A stretch of DNA of 33,103 bases from Candidatus Altiarchaeota archaeon (GCA_016931955.1 JAFGDV010000038.1:1-33103); one strand, 5' to 3'; shown: positions 1-33,103, counted from the first letter of the stretch. Notes: a model not told the origin generated them from the letters alone. A program made the numbers and translations.

Positions 1-100
1 AAAAGAAACGCGCCCGAAAGAAAAAGGAATTCGCCTACGGCGAATTCAACGGAAGGTAGGGTTGATAAGGGCGGAAACCCGCAGGTGTCTGCCCTTATGT
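1..100 (+). repeat. Multi-hairpin dispersed repeat, copy A (5'-truncated by window edge)
   Basis: GAATTCGCC-tac-GGCGAATTC at 27-47, then GGTAGGGTTGATAAGGG...CCCTTATGT with a stem at 65-98; same motifs recur near 824, 3320, 28161 and 33053. Confidence 0.9.
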
Positions 101-288
101 GTCAGATCACCTACTTCGGCGTTTTATTGTCGTCCGACTCCCTTCGACAAGTCGACTGGAGTCGAATAACTATTGGTGTCCCTGTAAGTTATCTTGTTGC
201 TCTAGTGCACCATCCTTTACAGGCTAATTTCTGGGCCAGTTAGTATATATGGGCGTACTACTCATAAGTAACAAATTACTCCACTAAA

Positions 289-723
289 ATGACCTCAACT
301 AACCTAGAGGGCATATTCTACTTTTATATCGAGAACAAGGTAACGGATGTGGGTTTACGCCTCGATATTGCCAAGGATATCCCTGATGAACTGGAAATTC
401 GAGTAGACAATATAACAAAAAACAAAGTTAGAGTTTACTTGAGAGGTAAAGAACAAGCAGTTGAGCGATTTTACAAATATATTAAAAAAAAGAAAAAAAT
501 AGGAAAAGCTGAAAACTACTCTATTTCTGAACTAAAACTGATGGAAGAAGCAGGTTGCATAAATATTGATACAAACAGGTTTTTCCATAAATTAGAATGT
601 GAACAGATGGGGAAATTTGTAGATGTAGGTATAGAAATGCGAGAAGAAATAACAGCCATGAAGGAGGAAATACAAAAACTACCTAAAAATCTGGCTAAGG
701 AACTAAAGAAAGTTCTTACTTAA
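289..723 (+). CDS. Acylphosphatase-like domain protein with C-terminal coiled-coil (divergent)
   Basis: NKVTDVGLR...VDN...VRVYLRG..QAVERF resembles the acylphosphatase GxVQGVGFR/N pattern; helical heptad-like C-terminus; AT-rich; TATA-like TATATAT near 244-250. Confidence 0.6.
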   Translation: MTSTNLEGIFYFYIENKVTDVGLRLDIAKDIPDELEIRVDNITKNKVRVYLRGKEQAVERFYKYIKKKKKIGKAENYSISELKLMEEAGCINIDTNRFFHKLECEQMGKFVDVGIEMREEITAMKEEIQKLPKNLAKELKKVLT

Positions 724-823
724 CCCGCGATAACATCTCCCCCCAACATCAGCACAGTATTTAAAGAACAAAACCCTCAGTCATGTAAGGTGATACGAAC
801 AAGCTCCTCGCTCACTACCTCGG

Positions 824-1007
824 CGTCAACCTTTTTCTTAGAAAGAAAAACGTTGACGAAAAAGAAAGGAATTCGCCAGAGGCGAATTCTTAGGGTTGAT
901 ACGCGAGAGCGCATAGCGCTCTGTGCGCCAATACACTTATGTGTATTGCGCGAGGGCATGAGATGCCCTTATGTTGATAAGGGGTGGACCTTGGTTCTCG
1001 CACTTAT
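824..1007 (+). repeat. Multi-hairpin dispersed repeat, copy B (expanded with extra hairpins)
   Basis: H1 CGTCAAC..TTTTTCTT-aga-AAGAAAAA..GTTGACG 824-858; H2 GAATTCGCC-aga-GGCGAATTC 869-889; interrupted GATA^AGGG...CCCTTATGT plus a second GTTGATAAGGG...CTTAT stem. Confidence 0.85.
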
Positions 1008-1033
1008 TCGCTGACGTCGTAGGTTTTATGCCC

Positions 1034-1042
1034 TTATAAATA
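1034..1042 (+). promoter_or_regulatory. Putative TATA box of the rps13 operon
   Basis: TTATAAATA about 27-35 nt upstream of ATG 1069, typical spacing for a leaderless archaeal transcript. Confidence 0.5.
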
Positions 1043-1068
1043 TGAAATCACATATTTTAAGACCCAAA

Positions 1069-1548
1069 ATGCAGGCAGAGGCTAAGAAGAAGGTAGAAAA
1101 GGAGGAGTTCAGGCATCTGGTGCGTCTCTCTGGCGTGGTCTTAGACGGTAATCTAGATCTTATCAGAGCCCTCACTCGCATAAAGGGTGTCGGTCAGAGG
1201 ACTTCGGTCTCGCTCATAGACTCCTTAGGTATGGAGCATAAGATAAAACTCGGCTCACTTAATGAGGCTCAAGTGGATAAGTTAGAGGAGGGTATTAAGG
1301 GCCTTGATAAGATCATCCCTTCTTGGATGGTTAACAGACAGAAGGACAACTATACTGGAGAAAACATGCACCTCACCGGACCTGATTTGGATATGGCCTT
1401 CAGAGAGGACATAAACCTGCAGAAGAGGATTAAGTCATATAAGGGGATAAGACACAGCATGGGTCTGCCGGTTAGGGGTCAGAGGACGCGAACCTCTTTC
1501 AGGACTGGGGCAACAGTCGGCGTTAAAAGGAAGAAAACAAAGGTGTAG
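1069..1548 (+). CDS. rps13: 30S ribosomal protein S13 (uS13); start 1069 preferred over 1042
   Basis: IKGVG, SYKGIRHSMGLPVRGQRTRT motifs; first gene of the conserved S13-S4-S11-RpoD block. Confidence 0.97.
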   Translation: MQAEAKKKVEKEEFRHLVRLSGVVLDGNLDLIRALTRIKGVGQRTSVSLIDSLGMEHKIKLGSLNEAQVDKLEEGIKGLDKIIPSWMVNRQKDNYTGENMHLTGPDLDMAFREDINLQKRIKSYKGIRHSMGLPVRGQRTRTSFRTGATVGVKRKKTKV

Positions 1549-1551
1549 GAT

Positions 1552-2085
1552 ATGGGTGATCCACGAAAACAGAGGAGGAGGTATGAAAGGCCACAGCATC
1601 CCTGGAGGTCCGATAGGATAACCGAGGAGAATGAACTCTGCAAAAAATACGGTCTGAAAAACAAGAAAGAGATCTGGAAAGCCAAGTCAAGGACAGGGAG
1701 GTTCAGGGAGCAGGCAAGGAAACTCCTCGGATCATCAGGCGAGGAGAGGGAAAAAGAATCCAAGGAGCTTTTAGATAAGCTGAACAGGTTAGGGATCCTA
1801 GAAAGCCCATCGATAGAGGACGTTCTGGGATTGAATGTGGAGAACCTGCTAGAGAGAAGGTTGGAGACGAGAGTGTATAGGGGGAATCTGGCGAACACGA
1901 TAAAGCAGGCAAGACAGTTAATAGTCCACGGCCACATTATAGTAGGCGACAACGTGGTGAGTATTCCAGGATACATAACACCGAAAGATGAAGAAGACAA
2001 AATCAAACTCAACGAAAAAATAAAGGTGGTAAAACTTGACGAAGGAAAGCAAGGAGAAAAAGTCCCCGAAAAAGAAAAAGCCTGA
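1552..2085 (+). CDS. rps4: 30S ribosomal protein S4 (uS4)
   Basis: [47 protein letters not shown]. Confidence 0.97.
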
Positions 2086-2581
2086 AGAGAGGGTAGAGGA
2101 AAAAGAGGAGGCTGCGGAGGAGACCCCCAAAGCTGCTGAGGAGGAACCAGTTGAAGAGAAAGAGGTGAAGGGGGAACAAAGGAAAAAGAAGGAGAGTGGA
2201 CTTTGGGGTATACTGAACATCTATTCATCGAAGAATAACACCATACTTCATGCAACAGACATAACAGGGGCTGAAACCATCAGCATAAAATCAGGCGGCC
2301 AAATAGTGAAATCTCAGCGTGAGGAATCCTCTCCCTATGCTGCAATGCAGTCAGCATTGAGGCTGGTGAAGGATATCAAAGACAAGGGATTCGAAGGAGT
2401 CCATATAAGGGTGAGAGCCCCCGGAGGCCACAATGGACCAAGATACCCTGGTAAAGGTGCTCAGGCTGCTATCAGGGTTATATCGAGGAGCGGGATACAT
2501 ATTGGGAGAATAGAGGATGTGACACCACTCCCATACGGCGGCTGCAGACCGAAGGGGGGTAAAAGAGGCAGACGCGTTTGA
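2036..2581 (+). CDS. rps11: 30S ribosomal protein S11 (uS11) with Glu/Lys-rich N-terminal extension; start uncertain (TTG 2036 or a later GTG)
   Basis: [55 protein letters not shown]. Confidence 0.95.
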
Positions 2582-2587
2582 GAGAAA

Positions 2588-3166
2588 ATGAATGTAAAAA
2601 TCACCAACAAAAAAAATAATCGGGTTGAATTCAATGTTTCCGGAATCACTGCGAGTCTTGCTAATGCATTCCGAAGGGCTGTTATCTCAGAGGTCCCAAT
2701 TATGGCTATTGAGGATGTAACCTTCTACCAGAACTCATCGATGATGGACGACGAAGTATTAGCCCACAGACTGGGTCTAATCCCGCTGAAGACCGATCCG
2801 GGGGGGATTGAAACCATGCGTGTAAGCTTGAAGTCTGAAGGTCCTGGAACCGTATACTCTAAGGAGCTTAAACCCATGGAAAAGAGGGTGAAAGGTAAGT
2901 CATCTTCTCTAGCAGCTTACGATAAAATACCCATCATGAAACTGACGGAGGGCCAGAGGATCGAGTTGGAGGCAACTGCTCAGATGAGAAGCGGGAGAGA
3001 ACACATAAAATGGCAGGGGGGGCTGGCTTCCTATGAGATAGAGAAGGATGGCTCCTTCAGTTTTTTCGTGGAATCCTACGGACAGATGCCAGTTAATGAA
3101 TTAATAAACAAAACATTCGAAGTATTCAATAAAAAGATCAAGGAACTTAGATCACAACTAAAATAA
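2588..3166 (+). CDS. rpoD: DNA-directed RNA polymerase subunit D (Rpo3), short form
   Basis: ANAFRRAVISEVPIMAIEDV, NSSMMDDEVLAHRLGLIPL, IPIMKL, FFVESYGQM; conserved position after rps11. Confidence 0.95.
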   Translation: MNVKITNKKNNRVEFNVSGITASLANAFRRAVISEVPIMAIEDVTFYQNSSMMDDEVLAHRLGLIPLKTDPGGIETMRVSLKSEGPGTVYSKELKPMEKRVKGKSSSLAAYDKIPIMKLTEGQRIELEATAQMRSGREHIKWQGGLASYEIEKDGSFSFFVESYGQMPVNELINKTFEVFNKKIKELRSQLK

Positions 3167-3172
3167 TCACAT

Positions 3173-3321
3173 GCGGGGGTGCCCGAGTCCGGTCAAACAC
3201 ACGTCTTACCCCCTTTAATAACACTAAACATTTTGCCACCCATAAGGCGTTGTGGGCTAAAGGGGCACGGTTGAGGGCCGTGTGGCATAGGCCTGCGCGA
3301 GTTCGAACCTCGTCCCCCGCA
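3173..3321 (+). tRNA. tRNA-Leu(GAG) with a 64-nt intron (3197-3260) at position 21/22
   Basis: Acceptor GCGGGGG/CCCCCGC; anticodon arm CACGG-TTGAGGG-CCGTG; long variable arm; T arm GCGAG-TTCGAAC-CTCGT; removing 3197-3260 restores the D arm GGTCAA^AGGG; BHB motif present; no encoded CCA. Confidence 0.92.
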
Positions 3322-3422
3322 ACCTTTTCATAAAAGGTTGATCAAAAGGAATTCGCCTAAAGGCGAATTCAAAAGAAGGGTTGGGTTGATAAGGGAGGGA
3401 ACGTAGTTCCCACCCTTATGTA
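3320..3422 (+). repeat. Multi-hairpin dispersed repeat, copy C, between 15-bp direct repeats of the tRNA-Leu 3' end
   Basis: CAACCTTTT-cat-AAAAGGTTG, GAATTCGCCT-aa-AGGCGAATTC, ATAAGGG.GGGAAC-gta-GTTCCC.CCCTTAT; CTCGTCCCCCGCAAC at 3309-3323 and 3431-3445. Confidence 0.9.
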
Positions 3423-3556
3423 TCGAACAACTCGTCCCCCGCAACTGCCACTGTCAGTTGACACTTGGGAGCCACATGCGCTCCCTGATGTCGCTTAGTG
3501 GCTCTTAACAAATCAAAAGGGAAGAATGGGTTTGGCACGGAGAGTGTTTTGATAAA

Positions 3557-3922
3557 ATGCCTAGAACGTATGAATTCGAGGACCCAAGGAGGGTGGATTT
3601 GATGGATAGGCTTCGGGAAGCGGCTAGGGTTAATGATGCAGGCATCTGGAAGGCGTTGGCTGAGGAGTTGTCTCGCTCAAGGAAGGATAGGCATGCAGTT
3701 AACCTATGGAAGGTAAACAAATACACGAAGAAGGGGGACACTGTTCTCGTGCCAGGCAAGCTTTTAGGAGACGGTGTCTTGGATCATAGGGTTGATGTTG
3801 CCGCGTTCAAGGTCAGTGAATCAGCTAAGGATAAGGTAGAGGCTGCTGGCGGGAAGGTTATCTCAATCCATGAATTGGTGGAGAAGAACCCGAAGGGCTC
3901 CAATATTGTGATGATTGGTTAA
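3557..3922 (+). CDS. rpl18e: 50S ribosomal protein L18e (eL18)
   Basis: IWKALAEEL, VNLWKVNKY, TVLVPGKLLGDG, VAAFKVSESAKDKV, NPKGSNI. Confidence 0.96.
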   Translation: MPRTYEFEDPRRVDLMDRLREAARVNDAGIWKALAEELSRSRKDRHAVNLWKVNKYTKKGDTVLVPGKLLGDGVLDHRVDVAAFKVSESAKDKVEAAGGKVISIHELVEKNPKGSNIVMIG

Positions 3923-4361
3923 GATGATAGTTAACGCTGAGGGGCAGGTTTTAGGCAGGCTGGCGTCGTTCGTCGCCAAGCAGGCGTTGCTCGGAGACGA
4001 GGTTATTGTAGTGAACGCTGAGAAGGCGCTGGTCTCGGGTAAGGGAGATATGGTGAGGGGTAAGGAGTTAGAGAAGCTGGATATAAGGAACATAGGTAAC
4101 ACAAAGAAGGGCCCCTTCCACCAGAAGAGACCTGATAAGTACGTTAGAAAAGCCGTCCGCGGCATGCTTCCTTGGAAGAAGGCCAGCGGCAGAGAAGCCT
4201 TTAAGAGGATTCAGGTTTATATAGGCATCCCCGAAGATGTTATAAAAAAGGTGCATAATGTGGGGAAGATTGAGATACATAACTTAGATGACATGAAAAA
4301 GGGTTTAGTGGAGTATACTACAGTCGCTGAAATCTGTAAGTCCATAGGTGGAAAATGGTAG
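3915..4361 (+). CDS. rpl13: 50S ribosomal protein L13 (uL13)
   Basis: NAEGQVLGRLASFVAK, VVNAEKA, RPDKYVRKAVRGMLPWKK. Confidence 0.96.
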   Translation: MVKMIVNAEGQVLGRLASFVAKQALLGDEVIVVNAEKALVSGKGDMVRGKELEKLDIRNIGNTKKGPFHQKRPDKYVRKAVRGMLPWKKASGREAFKRIQVYIGIPEDVIKKVHNVGKIEIHNLDDMKKGLVEYTTVAEICKSIGGKW

Positions 4362-4771
4362 AGAAACAAATTCACAAGGCAGGGAAAAGGAAGATGTCTA
4401 TTGCTCGGGCGACGGTGAAAAAGGGCAGGGGTAGGGTGACCATAAACGCTGTACCTCTTGACGTCTATCAGCCAGAGATTGCTCGATTCAAGATTTATGA
4501 GACTCTGATGCTTGCATCAGATCACGTGGACTTGAAGAAGATTGATTTGTCGGTGAGCGTGAGGGGTGGCGGTGTCATGGGGCAGGCTGATGCCATACGT
4601 TCCTCGATAGCAAGGGGTCTGGTAGAGTTTTCGGGTAGTGATGAATTACTTAACGCGTATATATCCAATGATAGGACGCTGATAGCCGGGGACCATAGAC
4701 TGACGGAGCCTCATAAACCAAGTCAGAGCAGTAAGGGTCCAAGGCATAAAAGACAGAAATCATATAGGTAG
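4355..4771 (+). CDS. rps9: 30S ribosomal protein S9 (uS9)
   Basis: GKRKMSIARA, VRGGGVMGQADAIR, C-terminal RQKSYR. Confidence 0.97.
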   Translation: MVEKQIHKAGKRKMSIARATVKKGRGRVTINAVPLDVYQPEIARFKIYETLMLASDHVDLKKIDLSVSVRGGGVMGQADAIRSSIARGLVEFSGSDELLNAYISNDRTLIAGDHRLTEPHKPSQSSKGPRHKRQKSYR

Positions 4772-4783
4772 GAGGAATACAAA

Positions 4784-4984
4784 ATGATTATTCCAATCAG
4801 GTGTTTTAGCTGCGGTAAACCGATAGCCAAGGACTGGGAGGAATACAAAGAAAGGACATCTGCTGGAGAGGATTCCAAGAAGGTCCTCGACTCCCTGGGC
4901 TATGATAGGTACTGCTGTAGGAGGATGTTTATCTCCCACTCAGAAGTCATCGATGATGTGATGAGGTACAGGAGACTTCAATAG
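4784..4984 (+). CDS. rpoN: DNA-directed RNA polymerase subunit N (Rpo10)
   Basis: [19 protein letters not shown]; SD-like GGAGG upstream. Confidence 0.97.
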
Positions 4985-4989
4985 ATAAA

Positions 4990-5169
4990 ATGGAATACAC
5001 TAAATTCGAAATCGCCAGACTGATTGGTGCACGTGCGTTGCAGATAAAGATGGGTGCGCCAGTCTTGATAGATATCCCATCAGGTGTTAATAGGCCGCTG
5101 GATATAGCGAAGCAAGAACTCGAAAAAGATGTTTTACCTATAACAGTTAAAAGGAAGGAGCCAAGATGA
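4990..5169 (+). CDS. rpoK: DNA-directed RNA polymerase subunit K (Rpo6); 59 aa, absent from the ORF track
   Basis: Manual translation [59 protein letters not shown]; ATGA overlap with rps2. Confidence 0.95.
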
Positions 5170-5843
5170 CTGAGGAGATTGACGTATCAACCGAAGACTT
5201 TCTTGTCCCATTGGATGATTACCTCTCGAACGGGGTCCATGTTGGATTGAAGTATAGAACAAAGGATATGAGGGAATTCATATACAAGATCAGGCAGGAT
5301 AAACTCTGCGTCTTTGACGTGAGAAAAATAAACGATAGGTTGAGGATTGCCGTAGACTTCATCTCAAGATATGATCCGAAGAATGTTGTAGTGATTTCTA
5401 ATAGGGTGTACGGCAGAAAGCCGATAAAGAAGTTCTGCGAATACGTTGGCTGCACGGCAATAGAAAACCGCTTTGTTTCAGGGACCCTGACGAACCCGGA
5501 GATAGAAGACTACGTTGAAGCAAAACTGCTTATAGTCACGGACCCCAGCAGTGATCAGCAGGCTATTAAGGAGGCTGCTCTGGCCGGGATACCCGTTGTG
5601 GCAATCTGCGACACAAACACCAGGTCAAAAAACATAGACTTGATCATACCATCCAACAATAAAGGTAAGAACTCTCTCGCATTGATCTACTGGATACTCA
5701 GCAAGGAGATTCTGAAGAAGAGGGGTGTGGGGGAATTTAACGCTCAGCTCGATGATTTCATATCCAAGGCCGAACCCCAACCCTACTTATTGAAGATGCA
5801 GGAACTGCAGAGAAGGCAGAGGCGGAAGAAGAGGAGGGGGTAG
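5166..5843 (+). CDS. rps2: 30S ribosomal protein S2 (uS2)
   Basis: [39 protein letters not shown]. Confidence 0.97.
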
Positions 5844-5849
5844 ATAGGG

Positions 5850-7112
5850 TTAAAGATTAACCTTATAAACTGCTTTATCGCCTAGTTCTTCCTCAATCCT
5901 CATCAGTTGGTTGTATTTCGCGTTCCTCTCGGATCTGCAGGGGGCGCCGGATTTTATTTGGCCGGTTCCTAGACCGACAACAAGGTCTGCTATGAAGCTG
6001 TCCTCTGTCTCCCCCGAGCGATGTGATACCATCACATTCCATCCGTTTTCCATTGCGATGTGTGCAGCATCAATTGCTTCAGATATCGTGCCTATCTGGT
6101 TTATCTTCAACAAAAGAGCGTTGCAGGCTTTCAGTTCAACCGCTTTCTTGATCCTTTTCACGTTCGTGACCAGCAGATCATCACCCACAAGCTGAACCCT
6201 TTCGCTGTTTTTTTCCGTAAACGCCTTCCATGAGCCCCAGTCGTCTTGGGCGAAGACGTCCTCGCATGATACTATAGGGTATTTTTGGAGCAGGTCAACG
6301 TATATGTCTGAAAGCTCCTCTCCTGAGATTTTTCTTCCCTCGAAGACATAGTTACCCTCATCGTAGAACTCGGAGGCTGCGGCGTCTATTCCCATCTTCA
6401 CCTTGCCGTTGTAACCCGATTCCTCAACAGCCTCCAAGATAAGCTCTAGGGGCTCCTCCGCCTGAGAAAGGGGGGGCGCAAAGCCGCCTTCATCGCCTAC
6501 GTTGATCGCGTTGCGCCCGTACTTTTTCTTGATTATGTCCTTCAGGCTTTGGTAGACCTCGGAACACATCCTCACTGCTTCGCGTAAATCCCCCGCGCCA
6601 ACGGGCAGGATCATGTACTCCTGTATGTCCAGTTTGTTGCCGGCATGCTCTCCCCCATTTACGACGTTCATCGAAGGCACCGGCAATGAAGTATCCCCCC
6701 CTGAAAGAGTGGAGATCCACTTGTATAATGGAATCCCCTGCTCTAATGCAGCCGCCCTTGTAACCGCCATGCTGACGCCGAGAATAGAATTCGCCCCAAG
6801 TTTTGATTTGTTTTCTGTGCCGTCCAGCTCGATCATCAATGAATCTATTTCCCGCTGTTTCCTGCAGTCTAAGCCGATTACCTTCTTGGAGATTATTCTG
6901 TTGACGTTTTCCACTGCCTTAAGAACGCCTTTCCCATGATACCTCTGTTCTTTATCCCTCAGCTCTAATGCTTCATGTACTCCAGTGCTCGCCCCAGAGG
7001 GGATCATGGCCCTTGAAACACCTTTCGCGGTCCTGAGATCGACCTCCACAGTAGGGTTGCCCCTGGAGTCAAGAACCTCTCTGGCGTGAATCTCTTCGAT
7101 CCTAAAACTCAT
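5850..7112 (-). CDS. eno: Enolase (phosphopyruvate hydratase)
   Basis: [56 protein letters not shown]. Confidence 0.98.
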
Positions 7113-7146
7113 ATAATAGATTTAGCTTAGAATAAAAAAAGAGCCC

Positions 7147-8713: not shown

Positions 8714-8716
8714 TTT

Positions 8717-10480: not shown

Positions 10481-10573
10481 CTCTTTTCCTGATGTATTCC
10501 CTATACTATAACTACAGAAATTGGGTGTCTTATTATAAATAGGTTGGGGAATATAAAACGTCGATTGTCGAAG

Positions 10574-12148: not shown

Positions 12149-12149
12149 A

Positions 12150-13583: not shown

Positions 13584-13619
13584 TTTTTTTAACAGGATAC
13601 CATATTATTAACCCACAAG

Positions 13620-19439: not shown

Positions 19440-19440
19440 A

Positions 19441-22007: not shown

Positions 22008-22039
22008 AAATGGAATAAAGGACAAGTGCTGGTTAAGAT

Positions 22040-22228: not shown

Positions 22229-22284
22229 GTATACCTCCTTTCTTTTTTTTGTTCTCTCCGCAGACTCCTTCAGCCAGAAATCAG

Positions 22285-24383: not shown

Positions 24384-24428
24384 TTTAGAACATAGTAAGT
24401 ATTGGAGTGTGGGGTTAAAAGCAGGTCT

Positions 24429-26357
24429 TTAAGTGATGCCGCTCATCCGCTTGATCACTTCCTCCCCGCCCAGGAGTGAATTCTTAAGCACGTCGGTTAT
24501 TGATTCAGCAGTTACTATCTCTATCTTTCCTTCATACTTTTTCTCAAGCAGTACGTCCTTTGCGTTAGCCTTCGGGATGACAACCTTCTTTAATCCGGCT
24601 TCTACTGCAGCCTCTATCTTCTGCGTTACTCCGCCGACGGGGAGGACCTCACCCCTCACCGTCAATGACCCTGTCATCGCAACCGATTGATCCACTTCAA
24701 CGTTCGTGAAAGCTGATATCACAGCTACTGCTACTGAAACACTCGCCGAATCCCCTTCAACGCCTTCATAGGTCTGCAGGAATTGGACGAAGATGTCGTA
24801 TTTTTCCTTTATGTCCTCCCCATAGATCTTCATTATCACTGCAGCGACGTTCTTTACAGCCTCCTTTGCTATGTCTCCGAGTTTTCCGGTGGCTATTATC
24901 TCCGATTTCTTACCCCCGGTGGCTACCTCAGCCTCTATAGGCAAAACTGTACCGCCGTCACCTAAGACCGCCAGCCCATTGACCCTTCCCACCCGCCCTC
25001 CTTCGGTGATCAATACATTGTATTCCCGTTTTCTCTCCAAGTAGACGTCTCCTATCTGCTGCTCAAGGGTTCTCGCTGTCTTCTTTGCCTCCAAGACATC
25101 ATCTGCGGTGACATGCTTGTGGTTTTTTTCTTTCGCTATGTCGCCTGCAGCCCTCACAAGGCCGCCGAGCTCCCTAAATTTGAGGGTCATCTTGTCTTTC
25201 ATGCCCGCCTTCCTCTTCGCCTCCCTGATGATCTCTCCGACAGCATCCTTGGTGAAGTGGGGGATCTTTTTGTCCTTTATCACCTCCTGTGCGACGAACT
25301 GAGCCAGCTTTTTCCTGTATTCCTCTGTGTCATCTATTGTGTCATCCAGGTAGACTTCATAGCCGTAACCCCTTATCCTTGATCTTAGGGCGGGGTGCAT
25401 CTCCTGGAGGGCGCTCACGTTCCCAGCAGCCACTAGGATGAAGTCACAGGGTACTGGGTCTGTTATGACCATCGCGCCTGAGCTCATCTCGCTCCTCCCT
25501 GTGATGGATAGCTGTTTCTCCTGTAATGCAGTGAGAAGGTCCTGCTGTGACCTGCCTAGCGTCGCTATTTCGTCTATGAACAACACCCCTTTATTTGCTT
25601 TATGGATGAGCCCCGGCACGACCCTCACATGGGGTGGAGTGCCTAAGCCGCCTGACTGCAGTGGATCGTGTTTCACGTCCCCCAGTAGGGCACCTGCGTG
25701 TGTTCCAGTCCCGTCAAAGAACGGCGCCTGCTTCCTCTTAGTGTTATCGATCAAGAGCTTTGGCTTGTTCGTCTTAGGTCCGCCGAGCATCGTAAACCTC
25801 ATACTGAAGGCAAGGAAGAGGAACAGGAATATTGCGAACCCTATGAGCCCTAGAGCTACCAAGGGATCAAGTCCAAAAGGTGGGAAACTAAGTACAACCG
25901 CTGCTAACACGACGAGGAAGGGCAGCATCAGTTGGTTGCTCTTTGACTCCGTTGACTCACCCATCTTCTCCCGCTCCTTTTTAACTATCTTTATACCCTC
26001 ACCGGAGGGTACGATACCTATCCTTGGATTGTTCTCGTCCTCCTCGTTCGGATACACTAAGACGTCCACTAGAATCTCTGGTGGCAGCAATTCAGTCATC
26101 GCGACTGCTAGCATGCTCTTCCCGGTCCCGGGCTCGCCGATCAACATGAAGTTCCTCCTCTGCTTCGCCGCCTTCTTTATCAGCTCAACGGCCTTGTCCT
26201 GCCCTATGACCTGGTCTATCAGCCTTTCAGGAATCTTGATCTGGTCCGTTGTCTCGAAGCCGTCCCAGGCCTTCATATCCCCTATGCTGATCTTTTCCTC
26301 AGCCTGTTTCTTCTTAGAATCCTCAGGATTTGTTTGTTGTTTCATTATAGAAGTCAT
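24429..26357 (-). CDS. lonB: ATP-dependent protease LonB (membrane-anchored)
   Basis: GEPGTGKS, two TM helices inside the AAA+ domain, HDPLQSGGLGTP, VLFIDEI, EGDSAS and VTQK (Ser-Lys dyad). Confidence 0.97.
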   Translation of the reverse strand: MTSIMKQQTNPEDSKKKQAEEKISIGDMKAWDGFETTDQIKIPERLIDQVIGQDKAVELIKKAAKQRRNFMLIGEPGTGKSMLAVAMTELLPPEILVDVLVYPNEEDENNPRIGIVPSGEGIKIVKKEREKMGESTESKSNQLMLPFLVVLAAVVLSFPPFGLDPLVALGLIGFAIFLFLFLAFSMRFTMLGGPKTNKPKLLIDNTKRKQAPFFDGTGTHAGALLGDVKHDPLQSGGLGTPPHVRVVPGLIHKANKGVLFIDEIATLGRSQQDLLTALQEKQLSITGRSEMSSGAMVITDPVPCDFILVAAGNVSALQEMHPALRSRIRGYGYEVYLDDTIDDTEEYRKKLAQFVAQEVIKDKKIPHFTKDAVGEIIREAKRKAGMKDKMTLKFRELGGLVRAAGDIAKEKNHKHVTADDVLEAKKTARTLEQQIGDVYLERKREYNVLITEGGRVGRVNGLAVLGDGGTVLPIEAEVATGGKKSEIIATGKLGDIAKEAVKNVAAVIMKIYGEDIKEKYDIFVQFLQTYEGVEGDSASVSVAVAVISAFTNVEVDQSVAMTGSLTVRGEVLPVGGVTQKIEAAVEAGLKKVVIPKANAKDVLLEKKYEGKIEIVTAESITDVLKNSLLGGEEVIKRMSGIT

Positions 26358-26416
26358 TGGGGAATAGTATCATCCCTATAGTAATATACACTATCGAGGC
26401 TTAAATATGGCTCAGT

Positions 26417-27382
26417 CTACCACTTTACCTCGACCTCGTCCGTCCTGAACCTCTGCCTCACATAGCTCTCCTCTAAGCCCTGCCTGATGCCTGCATCATA
26501 CATCAACAATCCAAGCAACGCTATCATTACGCCGTTATCGCTGCAATAGCCCTTAGGGACGCCGAAGACTGCCTCATGTTCTTCGGACATCTTTGCCAGC
26601 ATCACTTGGAGCCTTGAGTTGTTGCCTACACCACCAGTTAAGAGCACCTCCTTCGCCTTCAGGTGGGCTAAAGCCCTCTCCGTTACCTCGGAGAGCATGG
26701 CAAACGCCGTCTCCTGAAGCGAAAAACATACGTCTTCAAGCTTGTTGTCTTTGATCCTCTGGAGGGCGCTGGTAAGCAACCCAGAGAAAGAAAGGTCAGT
26801 GCCCTTAACCACGTAAGGCAGCTCGATATAGTTCTTACCCTCTTTTGCAAGGGCCTCGATCTTGGGGCCGGCTGGATGCTCTAAACCAACCTCCCTGCCG
26901 AACTTGTCCAGCATGTTCCCCACCCCGATGTCAAGGGTTTCCCCGAAGACTCGATAGTAGTTATCCTTCAGCTTAAGTATCTGTGTATTGCCGCCGGAAA
27001 CATACAATACCAGGGGATCACTCAGCCTGCAGAATATCCTCCCCACCTCAATATGCGCCACACAATGGTTCACTCCCATGAGGGGGATTCCATAACTCAG
27101 TGACAGGGTTCTCGCCGCTGTTGCCGAAGTCCTGAGACACGGTCCCATGCCGGGGCCCTGAGAAAAGGATATCAGGTCTATTCCCTTGAAATCAAGACCG
27201 GCTTTCTCAAGAGCTTCATCCAATGCCTTGCTCATACTATCAGCCATGAACTGCGAGGCCTCCCTCGGATGGATCCCCTTAGAGGGCACATAAACCATCC
27301 TCACATCGGATAGCACTTCATGGTCTGCAACAATCCCTATACCTAGGGTGTGGGCGGTGCCCTCGATACCTAAAGCTATCAT
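26417..27382 (-). CDS. kae1: KEOPS N6-threonylcarbamoyladenosine synthase Kae1 (not fused to Bud32)
   Basis: LGIEGTAHT, FSQGPGMGPCL, VNHCVAHIE, VSGGNTQ, DNGVMIA, FRTDEV. Confidence 0.97.
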   Translation of the reverse strand: MIALGIEGTAHTLGIGIVADHEVLSDVRMVYVPSKGIHPREASQFMADSMSKALDEALEKAGLDFKGIDLISFSQGPGMGPCLRTSATAARTLSLSYGIPLMGVNHCVAHIEVGRIFCRLSDPLVLYVSGGNTQILKLKDNYYRVFGETLDIGVGNMLDKFGREVGLEHPAGPKIEALAKEGKNYIELPYVVKGTDLSFSGLLTSALQRIKDNKLEDVCFSLQETAFAMLSEVTERALAHLKAKEVLLTGGVGNNSRLQVMLAKMSEEHEAVFGVPKGYCSDNGVMIALLGLLMYDAGIRQGLEESYVRQRFRTDEVEVKW

Positions 27383-27420
27383 CTTCCAGCTTAAATTATC
27401 TTAAACGAATATAAATAAAA

Positions 27421-27933
27421 ATGAGTGCAGGAATATTATCTGGTACCAAGGTCCTCGTCGGAGAAGGCGACCTGAAGTCTCTACTTCGGGAGAAGGGCTT
27501 CGGCACAGAGAAGGGAGCCCGACAGGAGCTGTCGTTGATAGAAGCCCTCTACTTGCTGGAATCCGAGAAGATGGAGGTCGTCGACGGAAAGAAGACACTC
27601 TCCTTCGAGGAACTCATAGAGATCGGCAACAAGATAGAGGAAAACTTCTACTCAAAGTATCTGGTCTACAGTGACCTTAGGAACAGGGGCTTGTTGGTGA
27701 GAACTGGTTTGAAGTTCGGCTCAGACTTCAGGGTCTACGAGAGGGGGGTTACAGTGAAAAAAGGCCACTCCACACAGTTGGTGAACGTCGTCCCAGAAGA
27801 ATATACTTGCTCTTTCCCGGAGCTTGCTCGGACCATAAGGTTGTCGCAGAACGTGAACAAGGCCATGATCTACGCCGTAGTAGACGAGGAAGGCGACATA
27901 ACCTACTACCAGATAGACCGAGTCAAGCTCTGA
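27421..27933 (+). CDS. endA: tRNA-splicing endonuclease (single-unit, 170 aa)
   Basis: LSLIEALYL, VYSDLRNRG, TGLKFGSDFRVY, GHS, NK (Tyr-His-Lys triad), VDEEGDITYY. Confidence 0.95.
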   Translation: MSAGILSGTKVLVGEGDLKSLLREKGFGTEKGARQELSLIEALYLLESEKMEVVDGKKTLSFEELIEIGNKIEENFYSKYLVYSDLRNRGLLVRTGLKFGSDFRVYERGVTVKKGHSTQLVNVVPEEYTCSFPELARTIRLSQNVNKAMIYAVVDEEGDITYYQIDRVKL

Positions 27934-27975
27934 ATCCCATGGTTTTAATTAACGAAATCGGATAATTACTTATAC

Positions 27976-28153
27976 GGGGCTGTGGGGTAGTCAGGCATCC
28001 TAGCAGGCTCCAGTGAACCTCTTTTTCTTTCCATAAGAAAAAGAAACCACGTACTGGAGCGCTGATCCCCTCCGGGGAGATGATGAACGGAAAGGTACGA
28101 ACCACATGGTTTGGAGGTACCTGCCGATGGGGGTTCAAATCCCCCCAGCCCCA
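27976..28153 (+). tRNA. tRNA-Trp(CCA) with a 105-nt canonical 37/38 intron (28014-28118)
   Basis: Acceptor GGGGCTG/CAGCCCC; anticodon stem GCAGG/CCTGC; BHB with central helix CTCC/GGAG and bulges AGT and GTA; T arm GGGGG-TTCAAAT-CCCCC. Confidence 0.93.
28053..28100 (+). ncRNA. Intron-encoded box C/D-type guide for tRNA-Trp C34 2'-O-methylation (partial box set)
   Basis: ACTGGAGC complementary to GCTCCAGT, followed by CTGA (28062-28065); the D+5 rule points to C34; ATGATGA at 28080-28086. Confidence 0.7.
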
Positions 28154-28160
28154 ATCACCC

Positions 28161-28309
28161 TCAACCTTTTCGTAAAAGGTTGACCAAAAAGACGCTGTTG
28201 CGTCTTTTCTGAGTCGAAAACCGTAAGGTTTTCGCTCATCAAAAAGAATTCGCCATAGGCGAATTCAAAAGGAGGGTAGGGTTGATAAGGGCACCTTGTA
28301 CCCTTATGT
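28161..28309 (+). repeat. Multi-hairpin dispersed repeat, copy D (two extra hairpins), 7 nt after tRNA-Trp
   Basis: TCAACCTTTT-cgt-AAAAGGTTGA; AAAAGACGC-tgtt-GCGTCTTTT; CGAAAACC-gtaa-GGTTTTCG; GAATTCGCC-ata-GGCGAATTC; GGGTTGATAAGGG...CCCTTATGT. Confidence 0.9.
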
Positions 28310-28321
28310 TTCCACACTTAT

Positions 28322-28804
28322 ATGCAATGCGAGGTCTGTGAGAAGCTTATCGTGGAGGGTAGGCGGGTGAGGATTGAAGGCTCCGTTGTAGTTACCTGTG
28401 AGGATTGCGCGAGGTTTGGCGAGGTGGTTGGTTTCGTCAGCTCCCGCGAGAAAAAGAAGCCTGCTGTGAGGGCTGAAGTTAGTGAAGGTGTTTCATTTGA
28501 TGTTGGAGGCGACGATCTTGTTGACGATTACCCTGGGATCATAAGGGATAAGAGGGAGAAGATGGGTTTGAAGCAGGAGGATCTTGCTAAGTTGATCAAT
28601 GAGCCTTCTTCTCTTATACATAGGCTGGAGACTGGCAGGATGGAGCCTGACCCTGAGGTGGCGAGTAAGCTGCAGAAGGCGTTAGGTGTGAAATTGTTGT
28701 GTAAATCAGGTTCTGAAGTTGTTCAACCTGAGAAGCCGACTGGATCTGATGAGTTGACTTTAGGCGATCTCGTAGTCATCAAGAAAAAGGGGGGGAAGAG
28801 GTAA
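28322..28804 (+). CDS. mbf1: Archaeal multiprotein bridging factor aMBF1 (Zn ribbon + HTH)
   Basis: CEVC...CEDC, REKMGLKQEDLAKLINE..SLIHRLETG, LTLGD. Confidence 0.92.
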   Translation: MQCEVCEKLIVEGRRVRIEGSVVVTCEDCARFGEVVGFVSSREKKKPAVRAEVSEGVSFDVGGDDLVDDYPGIIRDKREKMGLKQEDLAKLINEPSSLIHRLETGRMEPDPEVASKLQKALGVKLLCKSGSEVVQPEKPTGSDELTLGDLVVIKKKGGKR

Positions 28805-28805
28805 A

Positions 28806-30230
28806 GTGCTTTATTTTTTCTTGTTGGTTCTTTTTTTTGTCGGAGGAACCTTTTTGCTTTGGAAGACTAAACATGAGAGACACTTTATCGTCTTCATGAT
28901 CAGGACTAAACACTTTCTCGGTTTCTTGGATAAGCTTGCTGGACTTATGCCTGGGTTCTGGAGATTTTTGGCTGATTTCGCCATCGTTTTCTCGTTCAGC
29001 GGTGTTGGCGTAGCGTATTTATCAAAGCATAGTAGAGAACGCAGGAACCTTGATTTGGTAATGTTCATCTTCGGCTTCTTTGCAGTCTTGATGTGGGCGG
29101 AAAGCCTTGACTTGTTGGCTCTCATGCTAGCTGGCTTAGTACTGGTGGTATTAAGCCTGAGCAAGCTGAGGGACGCCTTGATCGACTTCGTCGTTGCAAC
29201 CGTTTTGATTTCATCCATCATGTTGAATGTCATGGTTTGGTATCTGGCGGTGCTTGAAGGCGTTGTCGGCATCCTCGGTATTCTTGCCGGCTCACTAGTC
29301 GGCCACGCCCTCGATATAACATCAGGTCAATCAACCGTCCCAGGTGTGTCCCCTATAATACCATGGATCGAATCAGGTCAATTGGGTTTCAGCATTCCGG
29401 GTTTGGGCATATTTGTTCCATTAGGCTACGGAGTTGTCTCCTTGATACTCCTCTTATTCGTTCATGAGTTCTCTCACGGAATACTTGCCAGAGTCCATCA
29501 GCTCGAGCTGAAGTCCACTGGCTTATTAACCTTGGGTCCCATCCCCATAGGCGCCTTTGTTGAGCCTGATGAGGAGAAATTCAAGGAATGTGAGAGTATC
29601 GTTAAGATGCGAGTCTTATCGATGGGTTCATTCTCCAATCTAGTATTATCCACAGTAGCTATCTTTCTCTTCATCTTGATCATAGCTCCTTCAGGTGGCT
29701 GGGTTGTCGCTGAATCCAATATAACAGCCATAGAAAATGGAACAATCGTGGAATCTATTGGCGACATAAACCTGTCATCTGTCGGCTACATAGGGGCGGC
29801 GATGGACGCGAACCTTTTCTCCAATAGATTCTATACGCTGAAGGAGGAGACCTTCGAAAACGAGAGCTTAGTGAACATAACAACCGAAAATGGTTTATTA
29901 GCCCTAACACCTGAGGAGTTATCTGATCTGAAGATCAAGTATGTTCCAGGTTATAGTTTCGACTTCGAGTTGCTGGGTTTCAGCCTGCCCCCTATTTTCG
30001 CAGGCACTCTATTCTGGATATTCTTCTTCAACCTTAACATTGCTTTAGCGAATCTTCTGCCGATTGTGCCATTCGACGGAGGCAAGATGATAATAGAGTT
30101 GTTATCTATTTTCAGGCTTAGTGAGGAGTCTGTGAGGAGGATAGTCTACGCCTTCCTCCTCGCAGGGTTGCTTGTTTTGCTGATTAACGCCTACCCCCTG
30201 CTTTATATGGTCTTTGATTTGTTTTTTTAG
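28806..30230 (+). CDS. Site-2 protease (M50) family intramembrane metalloprotease
   Basis: HEFSHG, GAFVEPDEE, NLLPIVPFDGG; many TM helices. Confidence 0.92.
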   Translation: MLYFFLLVLFFVGGTFLLWKTKHERHFIVFMIRTKHFLGFLDKLAGLMPGFWRFLADFAIVFSFSGVGVAYLSKHSRERRNLDLVMFIFGFFAVLMWAESLDLLALMLAGLVLVVLSLSKLRDALIDFVVATVLISSIMLNVMVWYLAVLEGVVGILGILAGSLVGHALDITSGQSTVPGVSPIIPWIESGQLGFSIPGLGIFVPLGYGVVSLILLLFVHEFSHGILARVHQLELKSTGLLTLGPIPIGAFVEPDEEKFKECESIVKMRVLSMGSFSNLVLSTVAIFLFILIIAPSGGWVVAESNITAIENGTIVESIGDINLSSVGYIGAAMDANLFSNRFYTLKEETFENESLVNITTENGLLALTPEELSDLKIKYVPGYSFDFELLGFSLPPIFAGTLFWIFFFNLNIALANLLPIVPFDGGKMIIELLSIFRLSEESVRRIVYAFLLAGLLVLLINAYPLLYMVFDLFF

Positions 30231-31876
30231 GTCAGCTTCTTTGACATATATGGACCCTCTCTAATGTAGCCGAATCTACGGTAGTAGTCTCTCACCCCTA
30301 TGCCGCTTGTTACCAGTATTTTCTCCATGCCCAAGCTCGTGCTTAGGTTCTCCGCCTCAGCCAGAAGCTCGGCGCCGTAGCCGCGGTGCTGCCACTCGAA
30401 GCTTGGTTTCTCCCCTACCTCCAGCATGGGGCCGTAGACGTGCAGTTCCCTTACCAAGGACGTCTTGGAAGTAATCTCCGGCCTGAACGGCTCATTCGGT
30501 ATCCTCAAGCGAAGGAAACCTATGAGTATGTCCTTCTTTGTGTCATCGAAGGACAGGAAGACTTCCCTGCCGCCGCTTGCATCGTAATCCATCCTGAGAA
30601 GCTCTATGTCATCTGCTTCCGGCTCTAAACCCTTCTTCGTCATCTGACCCACCTCCCTGCATCTGACGCACCTGCACTTGATGCCTCTCTTTTCCATCTC
30701 ATTGTAGACTAATTCGCCCAGATTCGAGGCCTTTACTCCAGCATCTATCAGGGGGGAGGGGATATCTCGTTGTATCCTCATCGTCCTCATCCATTTGGGG
30801 AGCGTGGATTTCACCTTAACTATGAGGTCCACAGCCTCTTCCGTCGTTAAAGGCCTGAACTCTCCTCTCCGCCACATGTCATAGTATTCTGTCCCCTTCA
30901 GGACCAAGCAAGGATATATCTTGACCATGTCCGGCTTGAATCTTTCATCTTTTATTATCTCATCAAATGCTTTAAGGTCTAGTTCAGGGTTATATCCTAG
31001 AATGCCGGGCATCATGTGGTAGCCTACCTTCAGCCCTGAATCCTTTAGCTGCTGCGTTGATTCAACAACGTCCTGGACTGTGTGACCCCTCTCCACCTTC
31101 TCATAGATTCTATCATCCGGGTTCTGGACGCCGATTTCCACCCTAGTTACCCCGAATTTTAGCATATGGTTTATCTGCTCCTCCTTCGCCCAATCGGGAC
31201 GCGGCTCAAAGGTTATGCCCACGCATCTTACCGTGGATTTTTCGTTCTCCTCCTGAAGGTCCTCAATGTAGTTGAATCTCTTCTCGGATTTACTGTATTC
31301 CTGGATGAACGCTTCCTCGCCCAGCTCCTTTATTCTCCCATAGTTTTCTCTGAACTCGTTCATGGCCTTCAGGGATTCCTTAACGAACCACTCCTGGTAG
31401 TCTAGGCATTGTGCTGTCAGGGTTCCGCCCATGACGATAAGCTCGACCTTCCCTATGGGATGCCCTATGTCTTTCAGTTGTGTAAGCCTGAATGTTACCT
31501 GTAGGTGGGGGTCGAATCCGTATCTTATAGCGCGCCTCGTTGCTGGTTCTTTGCCTGTGTAGCTCTGCGGTACCTGTATGTCCGGTCCGCCTGGACAGTA
31601 CCTGCATCTGCCGTGGGGGCACTTCGAGGGCTGAGTCATGGCGGCAACCACCGCAACCCCGGAAAGCGTCCTCATGGGCTTCTTCCTCAATAGATTGAGT
31701 ACCTTAGCCCGCTCCCCGGGCTTCGCATACCTCAGTATCTCAGAACTGCGGACGAATCTATCCAGCCGAAGCTCTTCAGATAGGCGCCTCTTCTCAGCAT
31801 CAAGACCTTCCCTGTCAACTATCTCCCCGGAAAGGATTTTCTCGATTATTGCTCTATATGGATCCATCGTATCCAA
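30227..31876 (-). CDS. elp3: Elp3 tRNA uridine(34) acetyltransferase (radical SAM + KAT)
   Basis: RTLSGVAVVA, CPHGRCRYCPGG, QSYTGKEPA, KIYPCLV, RELHVYG, QHRGYG, SGIGVRDYYRRFGY. Confidence 0.97.
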   Translation of the reverse strand: MDTMDPYRAIIEKILSGEIVDREGLDAEKRRLSEELRLDRFVRSSEILRYAKPGERAKVLNLLRKKPMRTLSGVAVVAAMTQPSKCPHGRCRYCPGGPDIQVPQSYTGKEPATRRAIRYGFDPHLQVTFRLTQLKDIGHPIGKVELIVMGGTLTAQCLDYQEWFVKESLKAMNEFRENYGRIKELGEEAFIQEYSKSEKRFNYIEDLQEENEKSTVRCVGITFEPRPDWAKEEQINHMLKFGVTRVEIGVQNPDDRIYEKVERGHTVQDVVESTQQLKDSGLKVGYHMMPGILGYNPELDLKAFDEIIKDERFKPDMVKIYPCLVLKGTEYYDMWRRGEFRPLTTEEAVDLIVKVKSTLPKWMRTMRIQRDIPSPLIDAGVKASNLGELVYNEMEKRGIKCRCVRCREVGQMTKKGLEPEADDIELLRMDYDASGGREVFLSFDDTKKDILIGFLRLRIPNEPFRPEITSKTSLVRELHVYGPMLEVGEKPSFEWQHRGYGAELLAEAENLSTSLGMEKILVTSGIGVRDYYRRFGYIREGPYMSKKLT

Positions 31877-31926
31877 TACATACTTTGGAATCAGAGTAAA
31901 TTACATTTTCTTGTTCTGTTGACTAA

Positions 31927-32235
31927 TTAAGGGAGCTTCAGCTTTTATGCGGCGGAGAGGGCTTAAAGGATGCGTTCTCGGACATCGAAGTGCTCGCAGA
32001 CAAATGCAAGTACGGGAAGTGCACACATACGAAAGAACCCGGATGCGCTGTTTTAGAGGCAGTGAAAGACGGCCTAATACCTGAGAGGAGACTGGAGAAC
32101 TATCACAAACTGAAACGTGAAATAGAGTACAATCTCTCCAAGCATGAGGCACGATTCAGAAACAAACGAAGCAATTTCTGGAAGAATGTAGGCAAACAAG
32201 CGAAACTCATCAAAAAATCCAGAGGGGAGCACTGA
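31927..32235 (+). pseudogene. rsgA: 3' remnant of ribosome small subunit-dependent GTPase A
   Basis: In-frame LRELQLL..EGLKDAFSDIEVLADKCKYGKCTHTKEPGCAV...RLENYHKL (RsgA Zn-finger tail); in-frame TAA at 31924; OB and GTPase domains absent. Confidence 0.85.
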
Positions 32236-32285
32236 AGCATATAAAGGCGACTTAAGCGGCTCAGGTAACGGAAGCATAACAGAGG

Positions 32286-32471
32286 TTATCGGAAATGTGA
32301 CTTTTGCAGTTTCCCCCAAGTCATGCGTTTTTCTTTGGAGAGGGTTTTGTTTATGAAATGGTTTGCCTCCTCAAGCCATGTGAGTTTCATTTCAGGGGAT
32401 AACCTATAACTCTGCCTTATTTTCTCTCTATCTAGTGTAAAAGAGAAACTGGTTTTAGTTTTTTTTCTCAT
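32286..32471 (-). CDS. Small hypothetical protein, partner of the upstream nucleotidyltransferase
   Basis: 61 aa with LSPEMKLTWLEE; start overlaps the NTase 3' end by 17 nt. Confidence 0.55.
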   Translation of the reverse strand: MRKKTKTSFSFTLDREKIRQSYRLSPEMKLTWLEEANHFINKTLSKEKRMTWGKLQKSHFR

Positions 32472-32958
32472 TCTTTATCTTCTCCAATTCGTTTAAGGCC
32501 TTCATATCTGCCACATCCTGAGTCCTTCCTGAGATCTCTTTTAGTTTCTTGATTCCTTCAAGGGATATTACCGGTATCCTTATACCCTTGGCTTTAAAGA
32601 CCTTCCTTTCAGTATATGCTTTATCGAAGTCTATTGGCTCGTCTATGAAAACATCAACAACCTCAAAGGGCTTCTTTGGGTTGTAGAATGAGAAAACCAT
32701 CATATTCTTCTTCTGCCTCCATTCACTTCTTTTCTCAGGATTTAATAGATCTGATGCCTTTACAGGTGCCTTCGGCTTGTACCCTAGATACCCAAGTACA
32801 TCTATGAACTTGGCCAGATTTTCTCTGCCTAAGTGCACCATCAGGTCAAGATCGACTGTTAACCGCACGACTCCGTGTAGTACAATGGCCACGCCGCCAA
32901 CTACCAAGTATTTCACGCGCCTCTTATTCAATTCCCTGAAAACATCTTCATAGTACAT
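32455..32958 (-). CDS. Nucleotidyltransferase-fold protein (DUF6036/AbiEii-like)
   Basis: YLVVGGVAIVLHGVVRLTVDLDL and C-terminal K..SGRTQDVAD motifs. Confidence 0.8.
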   Translation of the reverse strand: MYYEDVFRELNKRRVKYLVVGGVAIVLHGVVRLTVDLDLMVHLGRENLAKFIDVLGYLGYKPKAPVKASDLLNPEKRSEWRQKKNMMVFSFYNPKKPFEVVDVFIDEPIDFDKAYTERKVFKAKGIRIPVISLEGIKKLKEISGRTQDVADMKALNELEKIKNEKKN

Positions 32959-33052
32959 TTCTCCCGCCGGCTTAGTAAAGTATTTAGGGAACGCATAAAT
33001 AAACCCATACTATGGGAAGCGTGCACGGAAAGAAACAGAATTTTCTTTTTCG

Positions 33053-33103
33053 CAAACTTTTCGTAAAAGTTTGATCAAAAAGAATTCGCCATCAGGCGAA
33101 TTC
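33053..33103 (+). repeat. Multi-hairpin dispersed repeat, copy E (3'-truncated by window edge)
   Basis: CAAACTTTT-cgt-AAAAGTTTG-ATCAAAAA-GAATTCGCC-atca-GGCGAATTC. Confidence 0.9.

Follow-up and report, generated by a model that had tools for sequence, protein, structure and literature searches.

Small palindromic repeats are known in bacteria, and to our knowledge the way in which they move is understood only for repetitive extragenic palindromes (REP) and their partner transposase RAYT. In enterobacteria and pseudomonads, REP and the bacterial interspersed mosaic elements (BIME) that they build are short, non-coding, multi-copy extragenic palindromes with conserved stems and variable loops, arranged in mosaic clusters with linker motifs and possibly serving as terminators. 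Rickettsia palindromic elements (RPE), reportedly about 100-150 bp long and mostly located within genes, are likewise small palindromic repeats that have no known transposase and can stand in frame in protein genes. Integrative elements that use tRNA genes as attachment (att) sites leave an intact tRNA, the insert and a direct repeat of the 3' part of the tRNA from the T-loop onward, the region from T-loop to 3' end being, it is said, the classical integrase crossover region. Mobile hairpins also occur in organelles, as with the PstI palindromes of Neurospora mitochondria; the GC-cluster and PstI-palindrome elements of fungal mitochondria (PMC4478555) are mobile GC-rich hairpins that flank tRNA genes, carry restriction-site palindromes and have no known enzyme. 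Here we describe a dispersed hairpin repeat, built around a constant core hairpin termed H3, in a 33,103-nt stretch of DNA from a Candidatus Altiarchaeota archaeon (GCA_016931955.1 JAFGDV010000038.1:1-33103; the window). The window is the entire contig C10 of a 1.55-Mb metagenome-assembled genome (MAG) of 46 contigs and 92% completeness, here called G000, whose enolase has its closest relative, at 66% identity, in an Altiarchaeales MAG; other G numbers denote comparison genomes and L numbers extracted loci. The copies in the window are insertions into the genome of this archaeon, and on balance they probably represent a small mobile DNA element that encodes no protein and is non-autonomous, the motif of which appears to match no Rfam family and no described element in the literature that we searched.

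The original prediction, drawn from the window alone, had described five copies of a multi-hairpin array in which the stem of the second hairpin (H2) is constant and its loop differs each time, and an exact pattern search agrees: GAATTCGCC-N3-4-GGCGAATTC occurs exactly five times in the window (Table 1), always with a different loop, compared to no match in 100 shuffles of the window sequence, and at 12 sites genome-wide. The compensatory A-T swap noticed in the first hairpin (H1) of copy E was also recovered, with a second copy of the swapped variant on contig C17. What did not hold is the fixed order of modules, because contigs C22, C31, C24 and C42 carry H1 and H2 inverted or in another order, and other palindrome types also take part. 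Across the genome the order of the two modules and their orientation with respect to H3 both vary, such that H1, H2 and the T-rich hairpins are shuffled accessory modules, in mosaic order, around a core whose constancy had been overlooked, as had the duplicated target at the flanks of the copies and the spread of the motif far beyond G000. This core is H3 (GGTTGATAAGGG, a self-complementary interior and CCCTTAT), which is unbroken in copies A, C and D. The pattern GGTTGATAAGGG-N4-30-CCTTAT occurs 15 times in G000 and is present in 18 of the 61 genomes of our phylum set, every one of them in the window's own order (11/21 in family f1, 1/1 in f4 and 5/21 in f7), while both remaining families of the class (12 genomes) lack it and the reversed pattern used as a control gave no match.

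There are two subtypes of H3: a short one, with a stem of 9-10 bp, and a long one, preceded by a GGGAAGAGTRG-like linker and retaining a G.T wobble and an A/G mismatch in its interior. That the interior differs from copy to copy and yet always pairs, which had been taken as a sign of selection on structure, withstood comparison with both cross-paired arms and shuffles. In 43 distinct interiors, 197 of 220 positions form Watson-Crick or G.U pairs, compared to 58% when arms are cross-paired; and when 16 distinct 28-nt copies are compared, 16 changes that affect both sides are found at the three variable pairs, as opposed to 4.6 +/- 2.0 after shuffling, a count that none of 500 shuffles reached, with slid controls collapsing. 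Selection for pairing in H3 is well supported.

Evidence that the copies are insertions comes from related genomes. At the rpoD-tRNA-Leu-L18e locus, copy C is absent from two sister genera (G004 and G008), in which the tRNA is joined directly to the sequence that follows the pseudo tRNA end in the window; the same locus has almost no spacer and no hairpin in G014 and G006, and different hairpin sets in G002, G007 and G011. At the tRNA-Trp locus, G001, a member of the same genus, lacks the whole block of copy D and has a spacer of 14 nt, as opposed to the 155 nt of hairpins in the window. One H3 copy in G007 lies in frame within an open reading frame (ORF) resembling arginyl-tRNA synthetase, and both nested and tandem copies were observed.

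The insertions are flanked by repeats of their targets. Of the 52 H3 copies that could be tested, which come from 11 Altiarchaeales genomes, 29 have a direct repeat of upstream sequence (score of at least 14) that starts 0-11 nt after CCTTAT, and in 15 of these 29 it starts at nt 0, whereas only 1 of 158 control positions at the same loci has such a repeat. The 3' junction is exact; the repeats are 14-100 nt long, and the left repeat is separated from H3 by 0-232 nt without a conserved start. No microhomology was found between CCCTTAT and the sequence preceding the left repeat. When the target is a tRNA gene, the repeat begins in the T-loop and runs beyond the 3' end, leaving an intact tRNA, the element and a dead 3' fragment: in G000 this is the case for Leu (copy C), Pro (in three tandem units), Gly, Gln and Glu, and elsewhere for Leu, Arg and other tRNAs of G006, G008, G017, G024, G029 and G034 and for tRNAs in two Methanosarcinales MAGs. 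At copy C, the left repeat extends imperfectly back to the T-loop, from 3302, and has CAAC in common with H1; the ancestral flank resumes from 3443, after the pseudo tRNA end. Copies in the window sit outside the mature tRNAs, and further targets include the 3' or 5' ends of protein genes and the end of an RNase-P-like RNA.

Target-element-target arrangements could also be produced without a staggered cut by att-type (Campbell) integration, in which a small circle consisting of the hairpin and a target segment recombines within that segment, through either a tyrosine integrase acting in trans or homologous recombination, and in which arrays release and regain circles. Recombination of such element-plus-target circles fits the att-like repeats at tRNA genes, which span the reported crossover region, as well as the divergence of the repeat pairs, many of which match exactly in the core but not at the edges, or are mosaic (tRNA-Leu in the window, L119, L130 and L127). 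It also fits the extra A or AA beside the T-loop that the pseudo Leu ends of G000, G029 and G034 have in common and that functional genes lack, the frequency of tandem arrays, and the presence of a RadA gene in the window. However, it leaves the first creation of an exact junction between CCCTTAT and a target at a new locus unexplained, and it requires a circle of 120 nt, which is mechanically unlikely. No integrase recurs by the copies, the only tyrosine recombinase in the G000 assembly lies on contig C38 beside tRNA-Cys with no H3 nearby, and the targets (many tRNAs, the RNase-P-like RNA end and ends of protein genes) are too varied for a single site-specific integrase. In contrast to the known tRNA att-site elements, the inserts here are non-coding, measure 35-260 nt, have no linked integrase and occupy many unrelated targets, including protein-gene ends. 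We consider Campbell integration to be an unlikely source of the copies, albeit less so than the other alternatives, and the data fit both it and a target-primed or primer-like joining.

If the hairpins were not mobile at all, they could be host cis-signals maintained by selection, such as bidirectional terminators, processing sites of pre-tRNA or mRNA, or protein-binding sites. Their distribution in G000 is suggestive in this respect: perfect hairpins lie inside or within 50 nt of 20 of the 22 detectable tRNA genes (34 hairpins as opposed to 0.9 expected). The T-rich palindromes place T-runs on both strands directly 3' of tRNAs. The Altiarchaeales copies that we examined beside tRNAs are co-oriented with the upstream gene, the sense strand of H3 contains 16 G.U pairs as opposed to 2 A.C mismatches, and the clamp is kept across an order. 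But signals of this kind would not be expected to differ in presence between close relatives at the same locus, to be missing altogether from the orthologous spacers of G014 and G006, to carry target repeats, to be nested within one another or to be translated within a coding gene, and orientation is reversed in DPANN and Nitrosotalea. With mobility already indicated, we find it improbable that cis-signals alone account for the hairpins, which possibly serve a secondary host function alongside their mobility.

The original prediction of a non-autonomous mobile element is borne out by the empty sites, the direct repeats and the in-frame insertion, but the HUH transposase or RAYT that it had invoked as one route of mobilisation is not. 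As it had stated, the window encodes no transposase or integrase, none being detected among 36 window ORFs scanned with Pfam. A REP/BIME-like element moved by RAYT, or by a different member of the Y1 HUH transposases (IS200/IS605 superfamily) acting on single-stranded hairpins, would be in keeping with the mosaic clusters of short palindromes between genes and the fixed mismatches in the hairpin; Y1 genes are present in 17 of the 49 genomes of the order, and an IS200/IS605-like element lies, unassembled, at about 26 contig ends of G000. Yet no Y1 transposase was found in the G000 assembly, Y1 is no commoner in genomes with H3 (6/18) than in those without (11/31), and G016 has 17 Y1 matches and no H3. 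Moreover, REP and IS200/IS605 elements insert without target duplication, in contrast to the long repeats found here. The 5' end of REP palindromes bears a conserved GTAG or CGTC tetranucleotide (PMC3733652); the 5' flank of H3 is GGTTG, and GTAG is present solely in the loop of the long subtype. Together with its archaeal hosts and its strong bias to the ends of tRNA and small-RNA genes, these differences set the H3 element apart from REP/BIME, and mobilisation by RAYT or its relatives is in our opinion very improbable.

Searches for other enzymes gave similar results. Neither TnpB (by a zinc ribbon search) nor Cas1 was found in the G000 assembly, and Cas1 is present in just one of four copy-rich genomes. 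When 2058 ORFs from 122 H3 loci were clustered, no protein family recurred among the neighbours beyond syntenic orthologues, and a search of G000 for distant target repeats that would mark a larger, autonomous element returned only chance 13-mers. We rejected a MITE (a miniature transposable element with inverted repeats), because the element consists of one hairpin whose 5' end varies, lacks terminal inverted repeats matching an autonomous insertion sequence, has no related insertion sequence that we could find, and duplicates 14-100 nt rather than a short or fixed target. A casposon-derived element was rejected on the distribution of Cas1 and on repeats that are variable in length and not 14-15 bp. 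RPE share the in-frame position of the one copy in G007, but they are mostly intragenic, bear no sequence relation to H3 and have not been described as having long target duplications or a T-loop preference. The fungal mitochondrial elements differ in being organellar and unrelated in sequence, with tiny target duplications.

Alternatively, the element could spread at the level of RNA, by retroposition or in the form of tRNA-intron-like material on which the splicing endonuclease and the RtcB ligase act. Such a route would explain why the 3' end is exact, the 5' end truncated and the target repeat variable, and why junctions fall at tRNA nucleotide +1 and in the T-loop. Target-primed retroposition, as known from long and short interspersed nuclear elements (LINE/SINE), generates the same combination of a fixed 3' end, a variable 5' end and target repeats of variable length. 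Some copies abut nucleotide +1 of a tRNA exactly (L102 in G024, and contig C24 of G000), an Aenigmatarchaeota MAG (L237) has the hairpin antisense within the T-loop of a tRNA, like an intron, T-rich modules lie inside the introns of tRNA-Trp and tRNA-Asn, and a splicing endonuclease gene adjoins tRNA-Trp in the window. Against this stands the distribution of reverse transcriptases, which were found in 6 of the order's 49 genomes, with none in the copy-rich G000, G010, G024 and G034, and we regard RNA-level spread as improbable, about as much so as cis-signals alone.

The element is widespread among archaea. An exact-pattern scan of genome_contigs, with one genome per species (596 Gb), returned at least 120 loci. 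Among the matches listed, 53 of the first 80 are archaeal and belong to at least eight lineages (Woese-, Nano-, Pace-, Aenigmat-, Micr- and Iainarchaeota, Methanosarcinales, 'Halobacteria' MAGs, ANME-1, Nitrosotalea and Altiarchaeota), many of the matching genomes hold several copies of the clamp, short interiors are wholly self-complementary in 61 of 99 cases, and 11 of 46 archaeal copies from outside the Altiarchaeota display the flanking-repeat signature. In Micrarchaeota and Nitrosotalea, the hairpin lies antisense directly after a tRNA. No Rfam family or published description of the motif was found in a literature search that covered listings and abstracts. What emerges is an archaeal family whose core hairpin is sharply defined, whose 3' junction is exact, whose target repeats are unusually long and variable, and which prefers the tRNA T-loop. 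With its presence from Altiarchaeota to DPANN, relatives of methanogens and Thaumarchaeota, it provides a well-delimited substrate in the search for a new mechanism of insertion.

Outside archaea, an identical clamp hairpin, with interior GCCGCAGC, is present on many contigs of several Clostridiales or Clostridia MAGs (L187, L189, L197, L200-L202, L218, L222 and L253) and in IMG/VR (L160), followed by a conserved TCCGGCTCTGACGAC hairpin; bacteria may thus possess the clamp as well, or it may have been transferred. Most of the 19 matches on viral contigs fall in a single conserved coding sequence of phage, the interior of which does not pair, and were dismissed as due to chance or unrelated.

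Several considerations weigh against the copies being mobile DNA. No event of excision or movement was observed, and the evidence is entirely comparative; 23 of the 52 H3 copies, including copy D of the window, have no flanking repeat; and the long, variable and mosaic repeats (as at L119 and L130) suit integration by recombination at least as well as duplication at a staggered cut. No mobilising enzyme was found and no protein family recurs beside H3, although with a completeness of 92% and an IS200/IS605-like element left unassembled, a missing transposase gene is weak evidence. In addition, some 117 chance matches to 19 fixed bases are expected in 596 Gb (by our own arithmetic, with uniform composition), so that some of the non-archaeal matches are chance.

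In the reading that we favour, the copies represent a mobile DNA element with a core made up of GGTTG, the stem ATAAGGG, a variable self-complementary interior and the closing CCCTTAT; in the full-length form, a purine-rich linker and the GAAT...ATTC hairpin H2 are added on the 5' side, often together with the T-rich CAAC...GTTG hairpin H1. The last T of CCCTTAT exactly sets the 3' end, and the 5' extent differs among copies. Insertion puts the element between two direct copies of a 14-100 nt target, and at tRNA genes this duplication spans the T-loop to just past the 3' end, so that the upstream tRNA remains intact and a dead 3' fragment follows the element; unequal exchange between repeats would subsequently build the tandem arrays and mosaic clusters. 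We infer that machinery acting in trans, reading the hairpin as a single strand, moves the element, and because the 3' end is fixed, the 5' end ragged and the repeats variable, the process may resemble a target-primed or primer-like joining of its 3' end. The T-rich hairpins may double as terminators. As a tentative and more far-reaching possibility, the 19-base-clamped hairpin might be a pan-archaeal selfish element that has no transposase of its own, whose 3' end is joined by host replication or repair or by a new enzyme with duplication of 14-100 nt and a preference for the tRNA T-loop, and which persists as a T-loop intron given a permissive splicing endonuclease. The element would then be a concrete source of non-canonical tRNA introns in archaea, and it offers a testable route by which archaeal tRNA genes may gain T-loop introns and split 3' fragments.

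The features of the window that bear on the element are collected in Table 1.

Table 1. Repeat copies, flanking repeats and adjacent tRNA genes in the window (positions counted from its first nucleotide).
Feature	Position	Strand	Remarks
Copy A, truncated by contig start	1..100	+	A-rich linker; H2 27-47; purine linker; H3 60-98, then GT
Copy B, T-rich palindrome GTCAAC...GTTGAC	825..857	+	one central C/C mismatch
Copy B, H2	869..889	+	
Copy B, H3 interrupted by nested insertion	893..974	+	sequence reading
Copy B, second degenerate H3 (TGATAAGGGG...CACTTAT)	975..1007	+	variant also on C24 and C27
tRNA-Leu(GAG), target of copy C	3173..3321	+	hand parse; ARAGORN and Rfam give no call
Left direct repeat CTCGTCCCCCGCAAC	3309..3323	+	3' T-stem, acceptor strand and 2 nt beyond
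Copy C, inserted element	3324..3419	+	H1 3320-3340; H2 3349-3370; purine linker; H3 3384-3419
Right (pseudo) tRNA-Leu 3' end	3423..3445	+	TCGAAC-AA, then exact 15-nt repeat 3431-3445
tRNA-Trp(CCA), 105-nt intron	27976..28153	+	ARAGORN intron mode
Copy D	28154..28309	+	H1 28162-28182; palindrome 28187-28208; bulged palindrome 28211-28237; H2 28246-28266; H3 28280-28307; GT
Copy E, truncated by contig end	33053..33103	+	swapped H1 33053-33073; H2 33082-33103

The H3 of copy A is of the long subtype, with the G.T wobble and the A/G mismatch in its interior. In copy B, a 51-nt insert (902-952) that contains two palindromes sits within the 5' arm of H3, separating the 5' clamp GGGTTGATA (893-901) from the remainder (953-974), which ends in CCCTTATGT; this nested composite recurs on contig C21. 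The palindrome at the start of copy B looks like a terminator. The left and right ends of the contig each fall within a repeat copy, and the H2 of copy E (loop ATCA) is identical to those at the start of contig C37 and near the end of C46, showing that the assembly breaks in the repeat. The Rfam check called for in the original prediction, a gathering-score search of the whole window, returned 0 matches, and E-value searches around copies C and D gave chance-level matches only. A search for RNA runs containing this DNA listed none; the contig sets of three metatranscriptomes from the same study, compared with window positions 1-6000, yielded nothing except one unrelated 43-nt piece. As to other identities, a promoter was rejected because the next start codon lies anywhere from about 9 to 135 nt beyond CCCTTAT, and hammerhead, K-turn and dif-like identities were rejected, by eye, because the motifs misfit.

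Both tRNA genes that the original prediction had placed immediately upstream of copies are real, namely tRNA-Leu before copy C and tRNA-Trp before copy D. With default settings ARAGORN reports no tRNA in the window, and its intron mode is needed for tRNA-Trp. The tRNA-Leu(GAG) gene contains a non-canonical intron of 64 nt in the D-loop (3198-3261); gene and intron are conserved across the family, and the intron-less orthologue in G034 (L111) is called by ARAGORN. The position of this D-loop intron is kept in at least seven genera of the family. The intron of tRNA-Trp contains a T-rich palindrome near 28012-28040, followed at 28040-28100 by C-box- and D-box-like motifs (GATGATGA and CTGA), from which it may encode a C/D-box guide RNA, as in other Euryarchaeota. 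Just 21-22 tRNA genes are detectable in G000 (ARAGORN with introns, and the Rfam tRNA model), and many of its tRNA loci sit at contig ends beside hairpin clusters. Repeat-driven assembly breaks probably hide the remaining tRNA genes: with a hairpin element at tRNA loci, these MAGs break there and seem short of tRNAs.

The element in which many G000 contigs end (e.g., C8:1-90, C13:1-90, C16:1-90 and the end of C1) has two different subterminal hairpins, CCGTGGAC...GTCCACGG and CCACACCC...GGGTGTGG, and an interior coding part that is unassembled, and mini copies of it are present at C18:1-150 and C12:16950-17200. From these features, it looks like an insertion sequence of IS200/IS605 type together with its miniature derivatives.

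Genome-wide, G000 has 333 perfect hairpins (stem of at least 8 bp, loop of 3-7 nt) compared to 132 in a Markov control, and in 50 places two or more of them form a cluster. A C/D-box-like sRNA and what is probably the end of an RNase P RNA, both identified by eye, likewise have hairpins at their flanks. Several families can be distinguished by their stems: AATTCGCC (n=12) with the both-arm variants AATCTGCC (n=6), AATTTGCC (n=4) and AAATTGCC (n=3), T-rich CAAC...GTTG types, and ATAAGGGCAC, which is H3. Other hairpin modules too sit between target repeats: at C13:23140-23320, an insert of two hairpins without H3 is flanked by duplicates (~75% identity) of the initial ~60 nt of a gatE-like gene, and a comparable hairpin insert lies between repeats at the 3' end of a gene (C4:8925-9075). 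On contig C23, which is lower in GC, hairpins of the form CAACCTTT...AAAGGTTG in AT-rich stretches are repeatedly followed by the 12-nt motif GTAGTGCCTAAC (91.7-91.9 kb and 102.2-102.5 kb), as they are on C37 (22.4-22.6 kb); this may represent a further family of repeats or mark where a mobile region borders. Lastly, the ancestral flank of tRNA-Leu (window 3443-3520) itself consists of nested hairpins (CAACTG...CAGTTG, GGGAGC...GCTCCC and GAGCCAC...GTGGCTC), which are kept in G004 and G008 and are repeated at 93% identity on contig C8 (43158-43228), and in G002 (L109) the loop of the GAGCCAC...GTGGCTC hairpin houses an H3 insertion.

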